Virus record (IMG/VR): IMGVR_UViG_3300029310_000003
Source: a virus
Length of the DNA: 64,000 nt
Direction: 5' to 3' (one strand)
Shown: positions 16,585-40,546 of the stretch, in pieces
How the letters are laid out: every line of letters starts with the position of its first letter
How positions within the stretch are numbered: position 1 is the stretch's first letter
Translations under genes and position numbers: made by a program
The notes under the pieces: generated by a model
Databases searched by the model: none
The model's input: only the letters and a program-made list of their open reading frames with translations
Told to the model about the DNA's origin: nothing

Positions 16585-16976
16585 GCCTTTTCTCCTTCCT
16601 CCGGCGCGTCCGGCAATCCGCGCCATTCCCAGTGGCTGGAATTGCCGCATCCGGCGCATGGACAATTTTTCGTCACACAGTTCATGCATTCGATAACAGT
16701 CGCATTATCAAATTCGCAGTAGTCGAAATGCTTACAATCCAGACACGATCGACGCGCTTTTATCTGCTCAAGCAGCGCGTCCCTCTCGGCTTCTGCCTCT
16801 GCCTGCTTCTTCCGCAGCGCCGCGTTCTCGGCGGTCAGGCGCTCGATGAGGTCGGCTGCATCGGCCACTAAGCGTTTTAGGCAATCCCCGTAACAAAAGT
16901 ATTTGCAAGCTGTGCAGTCAATGTAGTCCGGGTCGCTGCAATACCGCAGCGCCTGTATAATTTCCTCGTATCTCAT
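16581..16976 (-). CDS. Cys-rich coiled-coil protein
   Basis: 131 aa with Cys clusters at both ends and a central coiled coil. ATGA overlaps on both sides. Confidence 0.5.
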   Translation of the reverse strand: MRYEEIIQALRYCSDPDYIDCTACKYFCYGDCLKRLVADAADLIERLTAENAALRKKQAEAEAERDALLEQIKARRSCLDCKHFDYCEFDNATVIECMNCVTKNCPCAGCGNSSHWEWRGLPDAPEEGEKA

Positions 16977-17857
16977 ATATCCTCCATCCCTTCAAGAACC
17001 ATTTGCCCCGGCAGAACGCCGTCTTCCATCCACCAGTGCATCACGTCCTCGCCGGTCTGCCACGCGCACGGAAGTTCTCGCTTGCGCCGTTCCTCAAGCA
17101 TCCTGTCAAACGCTCGGATATACGCGGCCTTGATCTTTGGGTAACGCGCGAACTCCACCTTCCGGTGCTTGCCTGCAATCGGGCAGCCGATACAACCCAC
17201 GCGTTTCCATCCGCATTCATACAGCGGATTCATGCAAATCTTTTCGGCAGAAGCGTAGTCCAACACGTCAGATTCCTGCCAGTCAATGATTGGGTTGACC
17301 GTCCTGGTCCCCTTGAGCTGGCAGTTTTCCATCAGCATGCGGCTTTCGTCATTGTCGTTCATCAGCATCAGCCGCTTGGATTTGTCCCTGTGCAGCGCCT
17401 CCATGACTCCGCGGGATTTGCGCTTTTGCGACTCGGCCCACCGGACGCCGGTAGCGATCCACCTCCCGCGGCCGCTGGTCTCTTTGAGCACCGCGCAGCA
17501 GTAGCGTACCAGGCGTGTCGGCGGCATGAGTTTGCGCGGAATCAAATTCCACATGGTTACATTCGTTCCGTCTGGGCGCTTGTGCGTATCAACGTCGCAC
17601 TTTACCCCCGCCAGCTCCAACCGCCGGAAGGTATCCAGCACATGCCGCACCGTCTCCGGCGCATCTGCTGTCGTCAGCGAGTGCAGCACCTCATACGGTA
17701 TCCCTGCCGCGCAAGCCAGATGCAGCAGCACGTCAGAGTCCTTGCCGCCGGAGTATGTGATTACCAGCGGTTGCTTGTAGAGCCGTAAGCTCATATCCGA
17801 GGCCATTTTCAGCCGCTCAATCGCGGCCCTTTCCAAATCCATTTCATTTCCCCTCAA
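16973..17857 (-). CDS. PAPS-reductase / ATP-pyrophosphatase-family protein
   Basis: PP-loop ITYSGGKDSDV and a C-terminal Cys cluster CGWKRVGCIGCP. Confidence 0.75.
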   Translation of the reverse strand: MRGNEMDLERAAIERLKMASDMSLRLYKQPLVITYSGGKDSDVLLHLACAAGIPYEVLHSLTTADAPETVRHVLDTFRRLELAGVKCDVDTHKRPDGTNVTMWNLIPRKLMPPTRLVRYCCAVLKETSGRGRWIATGVRWAESQKRKSRGVMEALHRDKSKRLMLMNDNDESRMLMENCQLKGTRTVNPIIDWQESDVLDYASAEKICMNPLYECGWKRVGCIGCPIAGKHRKVEFARYPKIKAAYIRAFDRMLEERRKRELPCAWQTGEDVMHWWMEDGVLPGQMVLEGMEDI

Positions 17858-33767: not shown

Positions 33768-34853
33768 ATGAGCTTCCCCAAAGCGTATGAAAAATTTCGG
33801 TCGGCCATGATCGCCTACGAAGATAACCTCCGGGCGTTGGGACGTTCCGGAGTCACGATCAAAAATCAGGAACAGATCTTCAAAAATTTCTCCGGCTTCC
33901 TTCTGGAAAACAAATTGTGGGATCATGAGGAGGGCTTTCCGGAGATCCTCGCATGGCGCGACCAGATGCGCCGGGACGGCAAAAAACCGTCCACCATCAA
34001 GCAGTATCTGACCGTCCTTTCTGCCATGTACAATTTCGCCAGCTCCGAAGAACTCGGCGAAAACCGCTGGTACGACCGGAATCCCGTCGCAAAGCTCCTC
34101 ATGCCGGATACGCGAAAGCTCGACAAGCGACCGTATGAGCAATTTTTGACCGACGAACAGGTCATGCTTCTCTGGCGAAATAACCCTCCCGCGAAAACCG
34201 TGGAAAGCCCGAAATTCTGGCCGCGAAATTACGCCATCGTCATTTTGCTTCTGACAACGGAGCTTCGCAACAGTGAGCTTCTGGCGCTGACGCCTGCGGA
34301 TCTCGACTGGGAAAATTCCGAGCTGTACGTCGAGCACGGCAAGGGCGATAAATTCCGTCCGGTCGAATTCCCGCCGCTTGCGCAGACCGCCGTCCGGCTG
34401 TATCTTCGCAGCGGACTGCGTCCGGCGGCCGCAGGCGACCATGACCCGCTTTTTGGCACGGAGGCAACCAAGGAATTCAAGGGAACCAATCGGGGCGCAG
34501 AATGGCACGCAGGCACACGTCAGTGGCTTTCGGACGTCGTGAAGCGCCATGTAAAAACCGTGACCGGCGTGGATATGATCCGTTCGCACGATTTGCGGCA
34601 CGTCGGCGCACGGCTCGATCTCAACAGCGGCATGAGCTTTGAGGAGCTTCAGGCAAAACTCGGCCATGAATCCGTAGCGACCACGCAGATCTATTCCGGC
34701 AAGCTGACCAGCCGGAAAAACCGCCGTATGACGAAGATCGTGCAGGAGGAGAAGGAACGGCAGGCGCAGCGGAACGTCCTGCGTCTGGAAGAGTCGGGAG
34801 ATGATTTTTTCGAACAGCTCCGGCTGAAACAGCCCCGGCCGGAGATCGCCTGA
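33768..34853 (+). CDS. int: tyrosine recombinase / phage integrase family
   Basis: N-terminal SAM-like domain. HDLRHVGA (H-x-x-R) and GHESVATTQIYSG (catalytic Tyr). Confidence 0.85.
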   Translation: MSFPKAYEKFRSAMIAYEDNLRALGRSGVTIKNQEQIFKNFSGFLLENKLWDHEEGFPEILAWRDQMRRDGKKPSTIKQYLTVLSAMYNFASSEELGENRWYDRNPVAKLLMPDTRKLDKRPYEQFLTDEQVMLLWRNNPPAKTVESPKFWPRNYAIVILLLTTELRNSELLALTPADLDWENSELYVEHGKGDKFRPVEFPPLAQTAVRLYLRSGLRPAAAGDHDPLFGTEATKEFKGTNRGAEWHAGTRQWLSDVVKRHVKTVTGVDMIRSHDLRHVGARLDLNSGMSFEELQAKLGHESVATTQIYSGKLTSRKNRRMTKIVQEEKERQAQRNVLRLEESGDDFFEQLRLKQPRPEIA

Positions 34854-34905
34854 ACAAACCAGAAAAACAGAAATGATCCGGGTTTCGTCGTAAGCCCGGA
34901 GGCAC

Positions 34906-34973
34906 GGCGGAGGCAGGTGCGTCGTGGGGATAACCCACACCCCGCGATTTCGGTTCAAATCCGGATTCCGCCG
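34906..34973 (+). ncRNA. aberrant tRNA-like element A (acceptor + T-arm, no D-arm, no encoded CCA)
   Basis: GGCGGAG/TTCCGCC acceptor, T-arm TTCGG-TTCAAAT-CCGGA, and a central 8-bp stem TCGTGGGG/CCCCGCGA with a 10-nt loop. 68 nt. Confidence 0.3.
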
Positions 34974-35166
34974 CAATGCTGTGAGTTTGGGCATGGCTCA
35001 CAGCTGGTCATAACTGACCTCCTTTCTGTGAAGAAAAGCGTCACCCATGTAAGCGAAGGCGCTCACCGGAACATTTCAGAGATTCCGGTGCTCCAGGCTG
35101 GGAAGCCTGGCCATGGGTTTTCGGGAAGAACGCTCCCGCACCGGAGTAAAACGGGGAGCCATTTAT

Positions 35167-35240
35167 GTGCGTGTAGTTTAATGGCAGAACATCAGACTTC
35201 CAATCTGATGGTGGGAGTTCGATTCTCCTCACGCACTCCA
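35167..35240 (+). tRNA. tRNA-Gly (anticodon UCC)
   Basis: Full cloverleaf: GTGCGTG/CACGCAC acceptor, D GTTT-AATGGCA-GAAC, anticodon arm TCAGA-CTTCCAA-TCTGA, T GGGAG-TTCGATT-CTCCT, encoded CCA. Confidence 0.9.
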
Positions 35241-35607
35241 CATGGGTATTGCGGCGGACTCAGGGAAAGTTTTGAGGTTCCAAAGGCTTGGTGAAACGAT
35301 ATATCCGGCCATCCGCTCAATCTGTAGGTAGTGCAAGTACGACAGATTGCGAATTTAATTAGCTGGCTCCGGCTTAATGTGTGAAAAAACGGATGCGACC
35401 GATGCACCGGCGCAGGGCTGAAAAGTTCCGTGGCTTACCCTCCCGGCCTTCCGACAGTCTGCTGTGAGGCGTAAAGGATGGAAGAAAAACCGGCGTGGCG
35501 ACGCAGACCAACTTCTGCACGGAAGCGTCTAGGCGTCGAGTAACGGCGGCTCCGGAGCCGGGAGGCAGGCTGTAAAAACCAAGAAAAAAAGGCAAGGAGG
35601 AAAACAA

Positions 35608-35931
35608 ATGAGCTTGGAAATTCGCTATCTCACCAACGGCACGAAAAATGTCTACGTCGTCGCAGAGAAGGACGTGGCGCCGGTCGCGGTCCATTTCTAC
35701 AGCGAACGGGACGAAATCCCCTATCAGATCCGTAACTACGCACCGAAAGGAAAGCCAATGTTTGTCGGGCCGGATTCGGCAAGAAACCTTTTTGCAATGA
35801 AAGCCCTGTATCCGGAGCTGATCCACGAATTCTGCGACAAGCAGGAGTACGCCGGATCACCCTGCATCTTCGAGTCGTGCAGCCTCGCGGACTGGAAAAC
35901 CTGCAAATACCGCTGTACCGCAAAAATCTGA
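35608..35931 (+). CDS. hypothetical protein inside the tRNA island
   Basis: 107 aa with RBS AAGGAGGA and a Cys-rich C-terminus. Confidence 0.55.
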   Translation: MSLEIRYLTNGTKNVYVVAEKDVAPVAVHFYSERDEIPYQIRNYAPKGKPMFVGPDSARNLFAMKALYPELIHEFCDKQEYAGSPCIFESCSLADWKTCKYRCTAKI

Positions 35932-35941
35932 ATGAAATCAT

Positions 35942-36009
35942 GCGGCATTTGGCAAAGGGCAGTTACGAGCAGCTGTCCCAAGGCCGTTCGATTCGGTCAC
36001 GCCGCACCA
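35942..36009 (+). ncRNA. aberrant tRNA-like element B (acceptor + T-arm + CCA, no D-arm)
   Basis: GCGGCAT/ACGCCGC acceptor with one A-C mismatch, T-arm GGCCG-TTCGATT-CGGTC, discriminator A plus CCA. The central stem GGGCAG/CTGTCC has a 10-nt loop. 68 nt. Confidence 0.3.
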
Positions 36010-36250
36010 TCGTAAAAATCGTGTGACTAAGGTTTTCGTAGAACGCCGCGCATTTTCAAGATGCAAATCGTTCAGCTTGCCGGAGAAAGCCAACGCGTGG
36101 CAGATCCGGATGAAGTCACTTGAGAAGCCGAACTGACAAAACCGGCCGCACCGGAATCCGGTGTGAAGCGGAAACGGCAGGATGCCGCAAAGAACTGCCC
36201 GTTGGCCAGCGCGCATGGCCTCGCGTCCGGTACGTCAAGCCGGAAACGAC

Positions 36251-36326
36251 GGGCCGTTATCTCAAAGGCTAGAGCAACTCGCTCATAACGGGTAAAATCT
36301 CGGTTCGACTCCGGGACGGCCCACCA
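36251..36326 (+). tRNA. tRNA with CAU anticodon (elongator Met or Ile2/lysidine type)
   Basis: GGGCCGT/ACGGCCC acceptor, anticodon arm ACTCG-CTCATAA-CGGGT, T CTCGG-TTCGACT-CCGGG, encoded ACCA. G1:C72 argues against an initiator. Confidence 0.85.
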
Positions 36327-36354
36327 TGAAATTTTCGGGAAAGGAGGAAAAACC

Positions 36355-36627
36355 ATGAACAAGGAAGCACTTGCACAGGCCGTAGCCAATCGCACGAATA
36401 TGCCGAAGGGCGCAGCGCTGGAATCCATCGACGCGGTTTTCGAAAGCATCCGTGAAGCGCTGATCTCGCACGAGACGGTGAACATTCCGGGCTTCGGAAA
36501 ATTCGAAGCGCCGTATAAGGCGTCCAGAGTCGCAAGAAACCCGGCGACCGGCGGAACCATTTCGGTTCCTGCGCATCACGGCGTGAAATTCGCGCCCGCG
36601 AAGGCGCTGAAGGATGCCGTACATTAA
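36355..36627 (+). CDS. hup: HU-family DNA-binding protein
   Basis: MNKEALAQAVA...VNIPGFGKFEAPYKASRVARNPATGGTISVPAHHGVKFAPAKALKDAV aligns over its full length with the HU consensus. Confidence 0.9.
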   Translation: MNKEALAQAVANRTNMPKGAALESIDAVFESIREALISHETVNIPGFGKFEAPYKASRVARNPATGGTISVPAHHGVKFAPAKALKDAVH

Positions 36628-36696
36628 GGAACCTCTGAATAAATCCGGGCGAAAGCCCGGAGTACATAAACGCCAGAAAAATGAAAGGAGCAGCCC

Positions 36697-37242
36697 ATGG
36701 AACAGGAAATTCATCGCGGAGACGTATTCTGGATCGCGGATGCACAAACGGCGGTCGGCTCCGAGTACACAAAAACCCGGCCGGCCGTGATCGTGTCCAA
36801 CGAAGCAAATAACCGATACTCCGCAAATCTGGAGATCGTCTGGCTCACAACGGCCAATAAAAAGCCGCTTCCGACGCACGTCACGCTCTATTCCGCACCG
36901 CGCGTATCCGTCGCGCTTTGCGAGTGCGTCACAACGATCTCCAAGGAGCGTCTCCGGGAATATTATTGCACGCTCACGTCGGAGGAAATGGCGCATATCG
37001 ACCGTGCCATCCGCATTTCGCTGGGGCTTCCGGAGCCTGCCGAAAAACCGGAAAAAACCGCATCGTCCGAAAAAACGCCGGATGATCTCCAGCTTTCCAA
37101 CCTCCGCAGCGACTATCAGCTCCTGCTGAAAAAGCACGACGCTCTGCTTGCGCAGCAGGCCGTCTATGAGAAGATCTGCATGGCCTTCATTCCAAACTGG
37201 ACGCCGCAGGCCAAAGCCGCAGAGAACGGGAGCCGCGTATGA
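36697..37242 (+). CDS. PemK/MazF-family endoribonuclease domain with ~70-aa C-terminal extension
   Basis: RGDVFWIADAQTAVGSEYTKTRPAVIVSNE...IVWLTT...PTHVTL...CVTTISKERL, followed by a P/E/K-rich linker and a helical tail. Confidence 0.75.
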   Translation: MEQEIHRGDVFWIADAQTAVGSEYTKTRPAVIVSNEANNRYSANLEIVWLTTANKKPLPTHVTLYSAPRVSVALCECVTTISKERLREYYCTLTSEEMAHIDRAIRISLGLPEPAEKPEKTASSEKTPDDLQLSNLRSDYQLLLKKHDALLAQQAVYEKICMAFIPNWTPQAKAAENGSRV

Positions 37243-38348
37243 TCTACCTCGACCACGCAGCGACCTCTCCCCTTCTGGCCACCGCCCGCCGGGAATTTTA
37301 CCGGGCCTCGCAATTCAGCTGGGGCAACCCAAATTCCGTCCATTCCTTCGGGATCGCAGCCGCGCGGGAGCTGGAAAGAGCGCAGAGGATCGTCGCCTAT
37401 TGCCTTTCATGCAAGCCGGAACAGGTGATCTTCACCTCCTCCGCCACGGAAAGCTGCCGATTTGCCATGAACGCCATGATGTACGAATGCGGCAGCGTCC
37501 ATATTTCCAGCTTTGAGCATAAGGCCGTTTCTGCCGGATGGGAAGACAGTTTCCGCTTTTTCGGGATCAACCGCAGCACCTCCGGCTTCGCACATATCCA
37601 TACCGGCAACGAAACGGGCGAAATTTATGACCTCGCAAAAGCATTCGAGCCGTACACCGTCTGTTTTTCGGACTGCACGGCAGCCATGGGAAAAGCGCCC
37701 CTCGACTTCCGGCATGGAAAATGGTCGTACATCGCGGGCGGCGGACATAAATTCGGCGCACCCATCGGCATCGGCGTCCTGATCGCCAGAAAACCGGAGG
37801 TGATCCGAGAGCTTTTCCATCCGGCAACGCCCGCCGTTCCTCTGGCCGCAGCCCTCGCGCAGGCGCTTTTCTTCCGCACGGAGCATATCGCAGAATTTGC
37901 GGATACCGCCGGATACTTGCATGACCGCCTGATCGATGGTATCATGGAGGAAATTCCAGACGCGCAGCTGAACGGCACGAAATATCGTGGAAACGAAAAA
38001 ACACAGTCGCCCTATATCACGAGCATTTCTTTCCCAAACATCGAAAATCATGCGCTTGTTCTGCGGATGTCCGCCGACGGCCTGATGGCGTCCTCCGGAG
38101 CCGCCTGTTCCAGCGGAGAAAACGAGCCGTCTCCGGTGCTTCTGGAATCCGGCTATCCCGCCGCCCGCGCAAGGAGCGCCGTCCGCTTTTCTCTGGACTA
38201 TAAGCTCGACCCCTGCGCTTACGAATTTTCGCACGATCTTGGCATCGACCGCCGCCGGGACGAAGCCATCATCGACCACGCCGTCAAAATCGTCGCGCAG
38301 AACGTCCGGGAGCTGAAAAAATTATCTCCCGCGCGGGACAAAGCGTAA
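37239..38348 (+). CDS. class-V aminotransferase / cysteine desulfurase (NifS/IscS-like)
   Basis: IYLDHAATSPL, PLP-Lys motif GGGHKFGAPIGIGVL, and catalytic-Cys loop SSGAACSSGENEPSPVL. ATGA overlap with the MazF-like stop. Confidence 0.85.
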   Translation: MIYLDHAATSPLLATARREFYRASQFSWGNPNSVHSFGIAAARELERAQRIVAYCLSCKPEQVIFTSSATESCRFAMNAMMYECGSVHISSFEHKAVSAGWEDSFRFFGINRSTSGFAHIHTGNETGEIYDLAKAFEPYTVCFSDCTAAMGKAPLDFRHGKWSYIAGGGHKFGAPIGIGVLIARKPEVIRELFHPATPAVPLAAALAQALFFRTEHIAEFADTAGYLHDRLIDGIMEEIPDAQLNGTKYRGNEKTQSPYITSISFPNIENHALVLRMSADGLMASSGAACSSGENEPSPVLLESGYPAARARSAVRFSLDYKLDPCAYEFSHDLGIDRRRDEAIIDHAVKIVAQNVRELKKLSPARDKA

Positions 38349-38362
38349 AATACCCGTAGAAT
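38335..38362 (+). promoter_or_regulatory. GGGACA-N16-TAGAAT promoter-like motif
   Basis: Exact motif spanning the desulfurase stop. ATG at 38406. Confidence 0.5.
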
Positions 38363-38405
38363 CCAAACCAAGCCCAACCGGGCAAAAAATAAAAGGAGAA
38401 CAGAT

Positions 38406-38747
38406 ATGGATATTCAGGATATGGCCGCCGCAATGGCGCAGAAAAATGAAAACTTCCACGGAACGGTGCAGAACGAGGAAAAGGCGGAGATCTTCCACAC
38501 CGTCCACGAGCACGCCGCCGCCGTCGCAAAAGCGCTCCGCACGCCGATGCACACCGAAGGCTTGGAGCTGCACGCGCAGTGCGCGTCCGTCTCCGTCGAT
38601 TTTCCGCTTCCAACGGGAATTCTGAACGAGAACATCCGCCGCAGGATCTCGGAAATGACCAAGCTCTGCGACATGGTGACGTATGCGGACGTGAACTGCC
38701 GTCTGCGCATGACCTTCACCGTCGCAAACGTCTGGAAGGAGGAATGA
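38406..38747 (+). CDS. hypothetical protein
   Basis: 113 aa with RBS AAGGAGAA. Confidence 0.5.
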   Translation: MDIQDMAAAMAQKNENFHGTVQNEEKAEIFHTVHEHAAAVAKALRTPMHTEGLELHAQCASVSVDFPLPTGILNENIRRRISEMTKLCDMVTYADVNCRLRMTFTVANVWKEE

Positions 38748-38751
38748 ATAT

Positions 38752-38946
38752 TTGGAAAAGCCAAAGCTCCGCACGAACGTCATAAGCCATGGATACACAT
38801 TTCTCGTGACGTTTCACGGCCGAAAAAGCAAGGAGATTCGAGTGGAAGCAGAAAGCATCGACGCGGCAATTTTGAAGCTTCCCGCTGACCGTATGTGCGC
38901 CAGACTTCTCCGTGAAGATACATGGGAGGTCGCAGAAAATGAATAA
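38752..38946 (+). CDS. hypothetical protein
   Basis: 64 aa with a non-ATG start in the ORF track. Tightly packed. Confidence 0.35.
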   Translation: MEKPKLRTNVISHGYTFLVTFHGRKSKEIRVEAESIDAAILKLPADRMCARLLREDTWEVAENE

Positions 38947-39229
38947 CGATCAGGAAATGAAGCAATTCGCCGACCGCTTGTGGGAATATTTTCTTCCGAA
39001 GGTCGAAGTGCTGACGCGCGCGAACGTCTGGTATTTCCGCGCGCAGGTGACAAAGGCCGCAGAAAACGGGCGTATCACCGTCCAACGCCCCTTCGATAAA
39101 GAAATCGCCCTTCCCTATGTGACCAGCATGGCAGCCGCATCCATAGGCTCACAGGTCACGGTTTTCGTCCTCGGCAGCAGCCTCACGAACGCCGTCATCA
39201 TCGGCGACGGCACGCTTTCCAATTTATAA
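38939..39229 (+). CDS. hypothetical protein
   Basis: 96 aa from MNNDQEMKQF with RBS GGGAGG. Confidence 0.5.
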   Translation: MNNDQEMKQFADRLWEYFLPKVEVLTRANVWYFRAQVTKAAENGRITVQRPFDKEIALPYVTSMAAASIGSQVTVFVLGSSLTNAVIIGDGTLSNL

Positions 39230-39230
39230 G

Positions 39231-39262
39231 AAAAAACCGGGAGGCGTAAAACCTCCCGGAAT
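39231..39262. terminator. bidirectional terminator between convergent genes
   Basis: AAAAAA-CCGGGAGG-CGTAAAA-CCTCCCGG. Confidence 0.6.
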
Positions 39263-39267
39263 CCCAT

Positions 39268-39441
39268 TCAGCTCTGGCTTTCGCACCATGCGTTCCAGAT
39301 GTTCTCCACAGTCTCGCTTTCATCGTCCTTCAGGCGCTCCATGCAAAAAAGCATGAAGTCTGCAAATCGTTTTTGATTCTTCACCTGACGGGAAATTTCG
39401 AGCAACTCTTCCTGTTCAAACAAAATCGTGCTGCAACTCAT
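39268..39441 (-). CDS. small IWNEW-family protein (paralog 3 of 3)
   Basis: MSCSTILFEQEELLEISRQVKNQKRFADFMLFCMERLKDDESETVENIWNAWCESQS. Confidence 0.5.
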   Translation of the reverse strand: MSCSTILFEQEELLEISRQVKNQKRFADFMLFCMERLKDDESETVENIWNAWCESQS

Positions 39442-39458
39442 GTTTTTCATACCTCCAT

Positions 39459-40220
39459 TCACATCTGCGCATCCGAAATCAAACTGGCGGCTTTCCGGCG
39501 GATAATTGCTTCGAACGCCGGTCGAAGCTTCCGGTCTCGGGAAATGACCTGCAAAATCGAAACCTGTTTGCATTCCGTTTCCGTTGCGCCGTTTTTCCGC
39601 ATTCGGTTGCGCAGACGTGTCTGGCGGCATTTTAAGTCAACGCCGGTTTCCGATTCCAACTCAGCGTAGCGGTCGCTGCGGAACTTTCTGTGATTTCCGC
39701 CGTACTGCTCCACAAGCGTGTTGATCTGGTGATTCATCGCCGAAGTCCAATCGTCCGGGCTGACCGCCGGGGCGGAGAAAATGTCCAGCGTTTTCTGCAT
39801 GGTCTGTTCCGTGCGTTCTGCGCGGTTTTCCAGAGCCTTGAGACGGCGTTCCTGCTCCACCATGAGCTGTGCTTGTGCAAGAAGCTGTTCCGCCGGAGAC
39901 AACTGCGGATTTTTGATTTGCGCTTCCATACGGTTGAATGCGTCGATGTACTTGAGTTTCCATTCGAGCGCAGACTTTCCAGTGAAGCCCATGACCAGCA
40001 GTGAGAAACCATCACGATTCATGAGGTACGCGCGCTGCGGTCTGCCGTAGCTGTCCGGAATTTCGACCGAGAAAAACATCTGCTCAAAATTGAGCACATC
40101 TTTTCTGAGGTCATCAATGTCACGAAGAACATTCCGATGCTCTTTTTCGAAGTGTTCGGCGATATCCCGGCTGCTTGCGACGGGTTGACCGTTCTGGTTA
40201 ATGGTGATTAAATCTTTCAT
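39459..40220 (-). CDS. Rha-family phage regulatory protein + ORF6C-like C-domain
   Basis: VASSRDIAEHFEKEHRNVLRDIDDL (pRha). The C-domain contains SPAEQLLAQAQLMVEQERRLKALE. Confidence 0.75.
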   Translation of the reverse strand: MKDLITINQNGQPVASSRDIAEHFEKEHRNVLRDIDDLRKDVLNFEQMFFSVEIPDSYGRPQRAYLMNRDGFSLLVMGFTGKSALEWKLKYIDAFNRMEAQIKNPQLSPAEQLLAQAQLMVEQERRLKALENRAERTEQTMQKTLDIFSAPAVSPDDWTSAMNHQINTLVEQYGGNHRKFRSDRYAELESETGVDLKCRQTRLRNRMRKNGATETECKQVSILQVISRDRKLRPAFEAIIRRKAASLISDAQM

Positions 40221-40339: not shown

Positions 40340-40516
40340 TTATTTTTTGACCGTGGCTTTCACCATCTGAATTCCCAAACGAATCACATCGCTCTTTGTC
40401 TTACTGAGTTTTTCACAGCAATACTCCAAATCCGACATTGTATCTCGATCTGCCAAAAATTTCACCTGTGTATCTTTCGGGTTTTCAGATTTCGGTCTGC
40501 CTGTACGGGGCGACAT
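40340..40516 (-). CDS. ribbon-helix-helix (CopG-like) regulator
   Basis: MSPRTGRPKSENPKDTQVKFLADRDTMSDLEYCCEKLSKTKSDVIRLGI. RBS AGGTGA. Confidence 0.55.
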   Translation of the reverse strand: MSPRTGRPKSENPKDTQVKFLADRDTMSDLEYCCEKLSKTKSDVIRLGIQMVKATVKK

Positions 40517-40546
40517 TTGTATCACCTACTTTCTATGTACATGTTT

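Follow-up and report, generated by a model that had tools for sequence, protein, structure and literature searches.

Among proteins of known structure, the closest matches of the toxin-type RNase described here are MazF (EndoA) of Staphylococcus aureus and Bacillus subtilis. T4 RegB is a phage-encoded, sequence-specific endoribonuclease with a toxin fold and no antitoxin, and CapRel(SJ46) is a fused toxin-antitoxin protein. In phages of Firmicutes, solitary MazF-like genes are commonly annotated as "growth inhibitors". Cysteine desulfurases of B. subtilis form dedicated pairs with acceptor enzymes, YrvO with MnmA and NifZ with ThiI.

We analyzed a stretch of 64,000 nucleotides (the window) of the IMG/VR virus record IMGVR_UViG_3300029310_000003. 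Its source is a ~84-kb gut phage binned with Oscillospiraceae, which are probably its hosts. In the window, genes for HU, a MazF-like protein (181 aa) and a class-I cysteine desulfurase (369 aa) sit 3' of tRNA-Gly and tRNA-Met. A preliminary description of this DNA had pointed out these three reading frames, their position directly downstream of tRNAs and an ATGA overlap of the MazF stop with the desulfurase start. All of this was recovered: the frames lie at the coordinates listed below, tRNA-Gly(UCC) and tRNA-Met(CAU) are found immediately 5', and stop and start codon share 4 nt (GTATGATC). The same proteins recur on 15 near-identical contigs and in diverged relatives, and the pattern of reading frames is therefore not a product of chance. 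Each part (MazF-like protein, desulfurase and HU) is a variant of an already known kind. We read the locus, with a probability of about 50%, as a lineage-specific accessory cassette in which the three proteins act separately and which is neither a toxin-antitoxin nor a defence module. For comparison, 54 loci were surveyed, comprising 30 related, MazF-bearing loci (group A) and 24 more distant ones (group B). The features are as follows.

16973..17857, - strand: PAPS-reductase-like PP-loop protein (PF01507, E 2e-21; SGGKDS; CC...CxxC)
33768..34853, + strand: tyrosine integrase, left bound of the accessory region (Pfam Phage_integrase, E 7e-18; kept in related loci)
35167..35240, + strand: tRNA-Gly(UCC), first in the phage tRNA array (ARAGORN; Rfam tRNA 71.5 bits; 26/30 group A loci)
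35241..35560, no strand assigned: conserved non-coding stretch (84-90% nucleotide identity across group A)
35608..35931, + strand: orf107, conserved hypothetical within the tRNA region (homologs in most group A loci, E ~1e-45)
36251..36326, + strand: tRNA-Met(CAU), 28 nt 5' of HU (ARAGORN; Rfam 50.8 bits; 30/30 group A loci)
36355..36627, + strand: HU-family DNA-binding protein, 90 aa (Pfam PF00216; PHROG 379)
36644..36661, + strand: GC-rich hairpin with GAAA loop in the HU-MazF spacer
36697..37029, + strand: MazF/PemK endoribonuclease core, residues 1-111 (PF02452, E 1e-21)
37030..37077, + strand: acidic, Pro-rich variable linker, MazF-like residues 112-127 (AF2 pLDDT <50 at 119-126)
37078..37242, + strand: predicted C-terminal amphipathic helix of the MazF-like protein (residues 128-164; AF2), short variable end and stop codon
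37239..38348, + strand: minimal class-I (NifS/IscS-like) cysteine desulfurase, 369 aa (PF00266)
38406..38747, + strand: orf113, conserved hypothetical accompanying the desulfurase (homologs in groups A and B)
38939..39229, + strand: orf96/105, conserved hypothetical accompanying the desulfurase (homologs in groups A and B)

Several of these features flank the three genes. The non-coding stretch at 35241..35560, which lies outside what we claim for the operon, is conserved far more strongly than its flanking genes and has a near-invariant core at ~35353-35439; group B as well as MT835513/MT835520 match the 79-nt core with 85-87% identity, and the stretch has no Rfam match. Neither orf107 nor orf113 matches Pfam or PHROG. 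The product of orf113 has no conserved Cys and is thus not an obvious sulfur carrier, and orf96/105 is devoid of Cys, with sub-threshold Pfam matches only.

Linkage of MazF and the desulfurase across phages

By the preliminary description's own standard, a finding that the three genes are linked nowhere else would have counted against it. They are in fact linked elsewhere: the trio is conserved in 30 IMG/VR loci spanning at least three sublineages, with MazF ~50% and the desulfurase ~60% identical, and both the ATGA overlap and the gene order are kept in all 30 group A loci while MazF diverges to ~50%. The 24 group B loci have the order tRNAs-HU-desulfurase, with no MazF detected within ±6 kb by profile HMM (E<=1), and MT835520 is likewise arranged as tRNA-Thr/Gly/Met-HU-desulfurase-Int, again with no MazF. 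HU accompanies the desulfurase in 54/54 loci. It stands immediately 5' of the MazF-desulfurase pair or of the desulfurase in group A, in L050/L052/L068 and in L176, and 0.8-3 kb upstream of the desulfurase in the other group B loci. As tRNAs occur within 6 kb in every surveyed locus too, the constant companions of the desulfurase are HU and the tRNA array. A single clade has MazF interposed between HU and desulfurase, and the GC and GC3 of MazF equal those of the neighboring genes. Beyond these loci, tblastn detected MazF-likes in 80 and desulfurases in 31 phage records, the host genera being essentially non-overlapping, and solitary MazF-likes, tailed and tail-less, are present in many Firmicutes phages that lack the desulfurase. 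Collectively, the comparison indicates that MazF was inserted into an older tRNA-HU-desulfurase block, and the pair is therefore probably not a working unit. Since all loci with both genes belong to one clade, their linkage represents a single evolutionary event.

These distributions weigh heavily against a joint function of MazF and the desulfurase as one unit. Such a unit could couple RNA cleavage to tRNA thiolation, as the preliminary description had suggested, or the desulfurase could neutralise or regulate the RNase as a large, unconventional downstream antitoxin. In one version of the coupling, MazF would destroy host tRNAs or mRNAs, and the desulfurase together with the phage tRNAs would rebuild a thiolated pool favoring the phage. 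The invariant overlap and gene order in group A speak for such a unit, as do the phage tRNAs immediately upstream and the reported cleavage of tRNAs by some MazF toxins (PMC4756823). The desulfurase family nevertheless occurs without MazF in the 24 distant loci and in MT835520, the MazF family occurs without the desulfurase in many phages, and the tailed MazF-likes of phages Lagaffe and Brigit and of other contigs have unrelated neighbors. Moreover, three assemblies carry a frameshifted MazF tail next to an intact desulfurase. The overlap itself, from which coupling had been proposed, is routine here, with 4-nt overlaps in 5/23 same-strand gene pairs nearby. We consider a single RNase-sulfur unit highly improbable. 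Under the separate-action reading, the 4-nt overlap would reflect compact phage gene packing and co-transcription, with no shared mechanism; because it is kept throughout group A, selection for co-expression of the two genes is nonetheless conceivable.

The MazF-like core, antitoxins and the C-terminal tail

Residues 7-109 of the MazF-like protein match Pfam PemK_toxin (PF02452) with an E-value of 1e-21 and 77.7 bits (cut-off 23.1), and the protein falls into PHROG 1936 ("MazF-like growth inhibitor") with E 4e-25. Both family alignments (15 and 70 sequences) have R28 without exception, and T51 is invariant among the 15 and nearly so among the 70; the two residues align with R25 and T48 of B. 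subtilis MazF. The AF2 model of the core has pLDDT values mostly above 90, and Foldseek matches it to S. aureus and B. subtilis MazF with E-values of ~1e-11 to 1e-12. The comparison supports a solitary, putative toxin-type RNase with intact catalytic residues and a conserved tail. Like MazF/EndoA, the protein would act as a dimer and cut single-stranded RNA at a short motif, with 2',3'-cyclic phosphate ends as products. The phage would use it during infection to degrade or re-programme host transcripts or its own early ones, much as T4 RegB is used; controlled by the timing of transcription, it would need no antitoxin, and the tail would tune it, either by clamping the dimer through a coiled coil or by acting as a lid. 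UACAU, the motif of the B. subtilis and S. aureus enzymes, is not avoided in the phage transcripts (z=+0.4), which lends no support to host-only targeting if the specificity is the same.

No antitoxin candidate adjoins the MazF-like gene, which is bordered by HU upstream, a 69-nt spacer and the desulfurase downstream. The missing upstream antitoxin and the HU gene in its place had already been remarked on, and the spacer holds no antitoxin ORF, nothing but a hairpin and the ribosome-binding site AAAGGAG lying there. As no T-run occurs with it on the + strand, the hairpin (36644..36661) is no intrinsic terminator of sense-direction transcription. The upstream protein matches Bac_DNA_binding (PF00216) over residues 1-89, on profile positions 1-89 of 90 (E 3.8e-27, 94.8 bits), and would be an ordinary phage HU-type DNA-bending protein. 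As a MazE-type antitoxin it was rejected, being a bona fide HU that is also present in relatives without MazF. A type II MazEF module was discarded likewise, as no cognate antitoxin gene adjoins and the tail is not similar to MazE, and so was a type III (ToxIN-like) system, as 34800-39500 contains no tandem repeats except a 19-nt chance match inside orf113. PADLOC 2.0 matches neither the MazF-like protein nor HU to any family at E<=0.001, and the earlier impression that the layout fits no described toxin-antitoxin or defence system holds, no catalogued system having been matched. Tail-less phage homologs follow a VRR-NUC-like or DnaC-like gene and also lack an antitoxin, and BFVD contains many viral PemK-like proteins of 170-266 aa. 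The solitary state is therefore normal for phage MazF-likes. In the literature searched, we found no experimental characterization or functional study of PHROG 1936 MazF-likes.

About 70 aa extend beyond the MazF domain. The linker and helical tail predicted from the sequence reappear in the AF2 model, where residues ~112-127 form a disordered linker and 128-164 a long helix whose block-mean pLDDT is 83-96; the overall pTM is only 0.59. Between sublineages, identity amounts to 57-64% in the core, 18-32% in the stretch 112-139 and 42-48% at the helix end; together with the predicted helix, this higher conservation of the end than of the linker places the tail under constraint. The helix end carries the motif LLAQQxxYEKICxAF, common to the proteins of Lagaffe, Brigit and other gut-phage MazF-likes. 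The MazF-like protein is 34% identical to the Lagaffe and Brigit proteins in a full-length alignment and 43-48% identical over the core. Their genes have diverse surroundings: the Lagaffe gene lies between genes for a DNA methyltransferase and a deoxyribosyltransferase, that of Brigit precedes a gene for an HTH protein, and another MazF-like with the same tail motif (L017) follows DUF2786. In one sublineage, a poly-C tract (C6/C7/C8) located exactly at the core/tail junction results in tail-less variants in the assemblies.

The tail might instead be a built-in antitoxin, as the preliminary description had suggested, or a sensor, making the MazF-like protein a single-chain toxin-antitoxin comparable to fused CapRel-type systems. 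The tethered helix would then fill the RNA-binding groove of the dimer until released by a superinfecting phage protein, linker proteolysis or a frameshift, and a resident prophage would gain a means of abortive infection or exclusion, or else a timed burst of RNase activity. Such a role is consistent with the lack of an antitoxin gene at the locus, with a conserved helix on a disordered linker that is free to vary, with the junction poly-C tract and its tail-less variants, and with the position of the gene in the integrase-to-lysis accessory region, the usual site of prophage morons; in B. subtilis MazEF (4ME7), moreover, the RNA channel is blocked by a C-terminal MazE helix. The tail profile, however, is unlike that of B. 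subtilis MazE (hhalign probability 0.1%), no stand-alone tail homologs exist among 1.8 billion representative proteins, and PADLOC returned no match. Tail orientations vary among viral models (rmsd 9-23 Å) and nothing points to docking in the monomer. Nor do tailed homologs occupy an obvious moron slot, that of Lagaffe lying in the replication module and that of Brigit among hypotheticals, before the HTH protein and a putative repressor. Because tail-less phage homologs also lack antitoxins, phages appear to tolerate an unneutralised MazF and the tail is not required as an antitoxin. We regard this reading as quite unlikely.

The desulfurase and its possible sulfur acceptors

The desulfurase had been described as apparently intact, and its GGGHKFG and SSGAACSSG motifs indeed align to PLP-Lys206 and catalytic Cys328 of IscS. 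Across 118 homologs, H104, N155, D180, H205, K206, T243, C328 and R354 (IscS numbering) are invariant, and Q183, which contacts PLP O3' in IscS, is Ala in 116. Three deletions distinguish the protein from IscS, namely ~21 aa (IscS 119-140), the GGGHERG loop and ~20 aa at the C-terminus; the GGGxERG loop is deleted in group A and part of group B. In view of the Q183 replacement and the loss of the loop and C-terminus, partner specificity, and perhaps chemistry, may differ from IscS/NifS. The AF2 model (pLDDT 91, pTM 0.90) has the class-V architecture of fold type I aminotransferases, with TM-scores of 0.80-0.84 to IscS, NFS1 and NifS. NCBIfam scores fall far under every equivalog cut-off (NifS 150 vs 530.75, DndA 110.6 vs 480, IscS 100 vs 643), so the protein fits no named orthologous group. 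Its clade comprises >100 protein clusters at 90% identity from human-gut phages. Judged by alignments and predicted structure, catalytic residues and fold are shown to have been retained under long-term purifying selection. The protein would be an active PLP enzyme that takes sulfur from L-cysteine onto loop Cys290 (A5 alignment) and hands the persulfide to host acceptors.

Most likely, the desulfurase is a sulfur donor feeding tRNA thiolation. tRNA-Gln(UUG) is present in 48/54 loci, and Gln-UUG or Glu-UUC in 50/54. In Firmicutes, NifS-like enzymes form dedicated pairs with MnmA or ThiI, and by this pattern the likeliest acceptors would be MnmA (s2U34 of tRNA-Gln/Glu) and ThiI (s4U8), so that phage and host tRNAs would stay thiolated during infection. 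In MT835487, an MnmA-like gene comes after a NifS-like gene of host type, a pair resembling YrvO-MnmA. In E. coli, thiolation of tRNA via host IscS-to-Tus promotes lambda infection (PMC3296357), and a role in tRNA thiolation has been suggested for tusE-like genes of phages (PMC8190135). The thiolation role suggested in the preliminary description is thus retained on circumstantial grounds, the conserved synteny with the tRNA array, and its coupling to the RNase is dropped. Two points count against thiolation. With the loss of tRNA-Gln, the sublineage of the window is left with Gly(UCC) and Met(CAU) alone, which are not s2U34 tRNAs, and shared descent within a single phage group could by itself account for the desulfurase-tRNA synteny.

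The PAPS-reductase-like protein is the sole other sulfur-related enzyme seen in the annotated parts of the window and a possible client of the desulfurase; supply to this protein, which is of Fe-S type, is the main rival to tRNA thiolation. The desulfurase would then serve DNA chemistry, providing a persulfide or a [4Fe-4S] cluster in the way that DndC is served by DndA and BrxP by the type-4 BREX desulfurase, and sulfur modification of phage DNA (phosphorothioate-like) would allow escape from restriction, with HU as the DNA-side partner. DndA-DndC and BREX type-4 pairings of this kind have been described (PMC12839542). The PAPS-reductase-like protein, with its SGGKDS PP-loop and CC...CxxC, matches BrxP with 68 bits and DndC with 30 bits (PADLOC), its gene lies amid DNA-modification and anti-restriction genes (N6/N4 methylase, Lar, DUF4406), the desulfurase does no worse with SspA (171 bits) and DndA (163 bits) models than with NifS (150 bits), and the genome strongly avoids several restriction-type palindromes. 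The two genes are, however, 20 kb apart on opposite strands, and the desulfurase is tied in position to the tRNA array rather than to the DNA-modification module. No relatives of DndD/E or SspB/C/D were found in the annotated parts of the window. The PAPS-reductase-like gene also occurs, at 80-90% identity, in dozens of phage contigs of 30-48 kb outside the set of desulfurase loci, implying that its product works without a phage desulfurase. We consider a function in DNA sulfur chemistry unlikely. A more far-reaching and very doubtful combination would make the block from tRNAs to desulfurase a translation-takeover kit around a self-restrained RNase: the tethered helix would hold the MazF-like protein off until the linker is proteolysed or slippage occurs at the poly-C tract that relatives have at the junction, the freed enzyme would cut host mRNAs or tRNAs, and phage tRNAs (Gly, Pro, Gln, Met), thiolated via the desulfurase, would sustain phage translation. 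If this holds, the phage would provide both the first case of a MazF neutralised intramolecularly and the first demonstration that a phage-encoded cysteine desulfurase acts on tRNA modification.

Comparison with described systems

Solitary phage MazF-likes generally have no antitoxin, retain the catalytic residues and in many cases bear a conserved tethered helix, and the family offers a testable hypothesis for the use and restraint of a toxin-type RNase by phages. In a large clade of human-gut phages, a trimmed, catalytically complete desulfurase is conserved by tRNA genes. Should it feed tRNA thiolation, it would add to the viral auxiliary genes a new class directed at the host translation apparatus, and the connection of sulfur relay and tRNA modification with phage fitness, known from lambda (PMC3296357), would become testable in gut Firmicutes. 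For annotation, the adjacency of MazF and desulfurase should not be propagated as a new toxin-antitoxin or defence system.

Compared with MazF/EndoA of B. subtilis and S. aureus (PDB 4MDX, 4ME7, 4MZM), the phage protein shares the fold (Foldseek E 3e-12, TM 0.8 on target length), ~38% identity, the LPTHV and GSE motifs and the catalytic Arg/Thr, but it is phage-encoded, has no MazE gene and carries an extra linker and helix of ~70 aa. Gp50 of Faecalibacterium phage FP_Lagaffe (169 aa) and gp83 of FP_Brigit (172 aa), likewise solitary members of PHROG 1936, share its architecture of MazF core, variable linker and C-terminal helix ending ...ERDxYxxLYxxLL, yet they have other neighbors, with no desulfurase anywhere in those phages. 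The likeness to T4 RegB is confined to the proposed model, in which a phage RNase of toxin-antitoxin toxin-like fold is controlled by timing and deployed during infection; RegB belongs to the RelE/YoeB-like fold family, not to MazF, and homology is not claimed. CapRel(SJ46) resembles the MazF-like protein as a single phage- or prophage-encoded polypeptide with a toxin domain and a C-terminal element, whereas its toxin fold is unrelated, and contact between tail and active site is hypothetical in our case. With Dnd, Ssp and BREX-4 systems the genome shares the presence of both desulfurase-like and PAPS-reductase-like proteins, but here the genes are not adjacent and the PAPS-reductase-like gene circulates apart from the desulfurase. 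The phage desulfurase retains the PLP-Lys, loop Cys, His104, Asp180 and Arg354 of IscS/NifS, and differs from IscS, NifS, YrvO and NifZ in being phage-encoded and standing apart from any acceptor enzyme.

Gene order and its recurrence in related phages

The three open reading frames described downstream of the tRNAs in the preliminary description were confirmed, including the overlap of the second stop codon with the third start codon, which reads GTATGATC:

36355-36627, HU (full-length PF00216, E 3.8e-27)
36697-37242, MazF-like ORF, 181 aa (PemK/MazF domain at residues 7-109, E 1e-21; PHROG 1936, "MazF-like growth inhibitor")
37239-38348, cysteine desulfurase, 369 aa, class-V aminotransferase fold, start overlapping the MazF stop

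A tyrosine integrase gene followed by tRNA-Gly(UCC) and tRNA-Met(CAU) immediately precedes this trio, and small conserved hypotheticals, a Rha-type regulator and then lysis and structural genes on the opposite strand follow it. No convincing promoter or terminator signal splitting the genes was found inside the trio, the hairpin after HU being devoid of a sense-strand T-run. The window is part of a ~84-kb phage contig that recurs in human-gut metagenomes, and distant relatives fall into genome bins of uncultured Oscillospiraceae and Eubacteriales. Elsewhere the window holds an ordinary set of replication and DNA-modification genes (YqaJ, dUTPase, DnaC-like loader, SSB, methylase, SNF2 helicase and a PAPS-reductase-like protein).

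To characterize the neighborhood comparatively, ORFs of 54 IMG/VR loci containing a desulfurase relative were screened with the window proteins and a MazF profile. In 30 loci (group A, desulfurase 57-95% identical) the trio is likewise linked, in the order tRNAs, HU, MazF (181 aa), desulfurase and orf113 (a conserved hypothetical, 38406..38747, + strand in the window), with the 4-nt MazF/desulfurase overlap in every locus; these span at least three MazF sublineages, ~50% identical to the window protein. The other 24 loci (group B, desulfurase 33-38% identical) have the same gene set of tRNAs, HU, orf113, the downstream hypothetical orf105 (38939..39229, + strand in the window), desulfurase and integrase, and a MazF-like ORF was not found in them even at HMM E<=1. 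The desulfurase directly follows HU after a spacer of ~90 nt in three of them (L050, L052 and L068), and GenBank phage MT835520 (desulfurase 32% identical) displays the order tRNA-Thr/Gly/Met, HU, desulfurase and, further on, integrase, again without MazF.

Tailed MazF-like proteins of other phages occur in different settings: flanked by a DNA methyltransferase and a deoxyribosyltransferase in Lagaffe, preceding an HTH protein in Brigit, and following a DUF2786 protein in another contig. No desulfurase was located near the tailed or tail-less MazF-likes examined in other phages, and GenBank phages yielded MazF-likes in 80 records (Lactobacillus, Enterocloster, Faecalibacterium, Coprococcus and others) and desulfurases in 31, the two sets being essentially different. 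Overlaps of 4 nt are common in this phage genome (5/23 same-strand gene pairs), and GC and GC3 of the MazF-like gene match those of its neighbors, giving no compositional signal of recent insertion. The simplest reading is a single gain of the MazF-like gene between HU and desulfurase in the group A ancestor, or losses elsewhere. As a single evolutionary event, the pairing is therefore weak evidence of functional coupling, and the coupling of RNase and desulfurase proposed earlier is unsupported by the comparative data, each family occurring without the other.

Further features of the phage were recorded. A 61-aa protein (40340-40525, - strand) adjoining the Rha gene resembles ribbon-helix-helix (CopG-like) regulators (…GRPKSENPKDTQVKF…) and probably regulates transcription; its length leaves no room for a toxin-binding tail, and its gene does not adjoin MazF. 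In group B phages a similar 62-aa protein is encoded directly upstream of the desulfurase, for example in L049 (5611-5799, + strand). The phage also encodes, at ~31888-32310 (+ strand), a Spo0A C-terminal (DNA-binding) domain protein between genes for Bro-N and ORF6N domain proteins, a hint that host sporulation or stationary-phase control may be manipulated. Restriction-type words are strongly depleted relative to Markov expectation on the sense strands of the whole window (GGACC/GGTCC, CCTGG/CCAGG, GCTGC/GCAGC and GGATC/GATCC, likewise GAACC; z from -4 to -8), which points to restriction-site avoidance.

The tailed MazF-like protein

Among solved structures, S. aureus and B. subtilis MazF/EndoA come closest (Foldseek E 3e-12, phmmer E 1e-16, ~38% identity). 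Arg28 is invariant when the protein is aligned with canonical MazF and with 70 relatives, Thr51 is invariant in a 15-sequence set and nearly so among the 70, and both align with the catalytic R25/T48 of B. subtilis MazF; GSE and LPTHV motifs are retained. Judged by this conservation of catalytic residues, the domain looks catalytically competent. UACAU, the B. subtilis/S. aureus MazF motif, occurs 39 times in phage sense strands against 36.9 expected (z=+0.4); self-avoidance in phage transcripts was thus not seen, in a test that is uninformative.

As claimed earlier, HU lies upstream and no antitoxin gene adjoins the MazF-like gene: the 69-nt HU-MazF spacer holds a GAAA-loop hairpin and a ribosome-binding site, and no small antitoxin ORF. 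A type III RNA antitoxin or other known RNA element was rejected, as repeats are absent and the two tRNAs are the only Rfam matches. An antitoxin beside tail-less phage MazF-likes was likewise rejected; these genes reside in replication modules, and the upstream ORFs, judged from translations, instead resemble a VRR-NUC-type nuclease or a DnaC-like C-terminus.

The C-terminal extension noted earlier is reproduced in the AF2 model, which predicts a confident core, a disordered stretch at ~112-127 and one long helix spanning 128-164 (block-mean pLDDT 83-96); pTM is 0.59, and the position of the helix against the core is therefore not confident in the monomer. The helix has an unbroken 3-4 hydrophobic seam, and conservation differs along the protein.

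Identity of the MazF-like protein between the sublineages carrying it
Core, 57-64%
Linker, 18-32%
Helix end, 42-48%
Last 11 residues, 9-18%

The terminal helix motif A-x-[RQ]-[DNE]-x-Y-[KE]-x-[LI]-[CY]-x-x-[LY]-[LI] is also present in otherwise distant phage MazF-likes, with the same motif in those of Faecalibacterium phages FP_Lagaffe (169 aa) and FP_Brigit (172 aa), and viral PemK-like proteins of 170-266 aa are numerous in BFVD. The tail is a conserved trait of a phage MazF subfamily and not peculiar to the window locus. No Pfam family matched it at E<=10. Kinship with MazE was rejected: a profile of 12 tail sequences, aligned by hhalign with B. subtilis MazE (MazE sequence checked against 4ME7_E), scored a probability of 0.1%. 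A split-off antitoxin was rejected as well, since a phmmer search of 1.84 billion representatives with the 70-aa tail returned no stand-alone homologs, its matches being the tail's own cluster and three repetitive proteins, probably spurious.

One related MazF sublineage, to which the window does not belong, has a poly-C tract exactly at the core/tail junction:

L026, ~3362, junction poly-C tract
L042, ~5798, junction poly-C tract
L027, L030, L039, L041 and L051, ~5799, junction poly-C tract

C7 keeps the frame, C6 (L026) yields a 119-aa tail-less MazF and C8 (L042) a frameshifted tail; L028 has a separate 1-nt deletion inside the linker. The tail is thus disrupted in three related assemblies, in which the desulfurase is intact. 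The C6/C7/C8 differences reflect either phase variation or homopolymer assembly error.

We infer that the MazF-like protein would act as a dimeric, sequence-specific single-strand RNase deployed by the phage during infection, a use that may be likened to that of T4 RegB. An antitoxin would not be needed if the producing cell is already committed, or if transcription is off in the lysogen, and the tail would modulate the RNase. Alternatively, the tethered helix may be a built-in antitoxin, as the preliminary description proposed, or a lid or sensor. A conserved helix carried on a free linker, the location of the gene in the integrase-to-lysis accessory region, and the truncated versions produced at the poly-C tract, if these are not assembly errors, are indirect evidence for a cis-antitoxin; however, tail-less phage homologs are also without antitoxins, which argues that the tail is not required as one.

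The desulfurase and its tRNA neighbors

Across 118 homologs spanning 35-96% identity, H104, N155, D180, H205, K206 (PLP lysine), T243, C328 (persulfide cysteine) and R354 (E. coli IscS numbering) are invariant. The family has Ala at Q183, a deletion of ~21 aa (IscS 119-140) and no C-terminal ~20 aa, and most members lack the GGGHERG loop. The AF2 model is confident (pLDDT 91, pTM 0.90) and superposes on IscS, NFS1 and NifS with TM 0.80-0.84. Scores fall far under every NCBIfam equivalog cut-off and are roughly equal on NifS, SspA and DndA models; with class-I catalytic residues and fold, the protein is therefore a divergent minimal class-I enzyme outside all named orthologous groups. Its PHROG entry (12787) is listed as "unknown function", and at 90% identity the family forms >100 clusters, which come almost entirely from phage-sized contigs and in part have the label Caudoviricetes.

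HU and the tRNA array are the constant companions of the desulfurase, with tRNAs within 6 kb in all 54 loci, tRNA-Gln(UUG) in 48 and Gln(UUG) or Glu(UUC) in 50. MnmA 2-thiolates the wobble U of three bacterial tRNAs, these two among them, with sulfur from a cysteine desulfurase, and Firmicutes use dedicated NifS-like/MnmA and NifS-like/ThiI pairs for thiolation (B. subtilis YrvO-MnmA and NifZ-ThiI). A host-type NifS-like/MnmA pair is visible in MT835487 (L177; 4992-7306), an "UNVERIFIED" fecal phage scaffold, where a full-length NifS-like desulfurase precedes an MnmA-like protein (…GMSGGVDSS…); we take these genes to be the s2U pair canonical for Firmicutes, the scaffold being either host DNA binned as phage or a phage that carries the pair in full. 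Circumstantially, tRNA thiolation is the best-supported role of the phage desulfurase. Lambda infection is promoted by the host IscS-to-Tus thiolation pathway, with which Fe-S assembly competes (PMC3296357), and tRNA thiolation is the proposed role of phage tusE-like genes (PMC8190135). Nevertheless, tRNA-Gln is lost in the window's own sublineage, and the synteny of desulfurase and tRNAs may reflect no more than common descent inside one phage group. Both orf113 and orf105 travel with the desulfurase, but were rejected as sulfur carriers because neither has a conserved cysteine.

The main rival holds that the desulfurase serves a phage PAPS-reductase-like protein in DNA phosphorothioation-type chemistry:

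16973-17857, - strand, PAPS-reductase-like PP-loop protein (SGGKDS motif, CC...CxxC cysteine pattern)

This protein scores 68 bits on BrxP of type-4 BREX, its best defense-model match, and 30 bits on DndC, its gene is surrounded by DNA-modification and anti-restriction genes, and desulfurase/PAPS-reductase pairs perform DNA phosphorothioation in Dnd and type-4 BREX (PMC12839542). The gene is, however, 20 kb from the desulfurase on the opposite strand, and among the best 80 of 141 viral matches it is common, at 80-90% identity, to dozens of mostly 30-48 kb gut phage contigs outside the desulfurase survey. Such a distribution suggests that the gene spreads horizontally and acts in DNA modification or anti-restriction, and we consider service to its product by the desulfurase unlikely.

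Directly 3' of tRNA-Gly lies a conserved non-coding stretch (35241-35560; core ~35353-35439), 84-90% identical at the nucleotide level across phages whose neighboring proteins are only 50-60% identical. It is also present in L009, L014 and L176, and overall in 28/30 group A and 6/24 group B loci; a ~45-60-nt core (…ACGGATGCGACCGATGCACCGGCGCAGGGCTGAAAAGTTCCGTGG) is nearly invariant even in distant relatives and GenBank MT835513/MT835520. The stretch has no Rfam match, the + strand core is no more stably folded than its shuffled versions (z=+1.45), and RNAalifold yielded weak structures without covariation. A host attB was rejected since the exact 45-nt pattern occurs in only 3 of ~185,000 species genomes, all on phage-like contigs; these are Oscillospiraceae, two of them with the core among tRNA genes. 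Related arrays contain odd tRNAs (L049, L053 and L057, e.g. L053 2979-3053; L009 4205-4275; L174 7502-7657), including one "tRNA-???" to which ARAGORN assigns an anticodon of only two bases (aa) and hence no amino acid, and tRNA-Asn(ATT), tRNA-Ile(AAT) and tRNA-Phe(AAA), whose anticodons are atypical of bacteria. The conserved core of some group B loci sits where others have an odd tRNA.

Relation to known systems

The stronger leads are the tRNA array-HU-desulfurase block of a large gut-phage clade and the tethered-helix MazF subfamily, the MazF-desulfurase pairing being the weaker one. Neither the MazF-like protein nor HU matches a catalogued defense system, and to call the layout undescribed was fair. 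HU does not stand out within its family. The MazF-like protein has the fold, domain and catalytic residues of the MazF family, lacks the adjacent antitoxin that defines a type II module, and belongs to a catalogued, uncharacterized phage subfamily.
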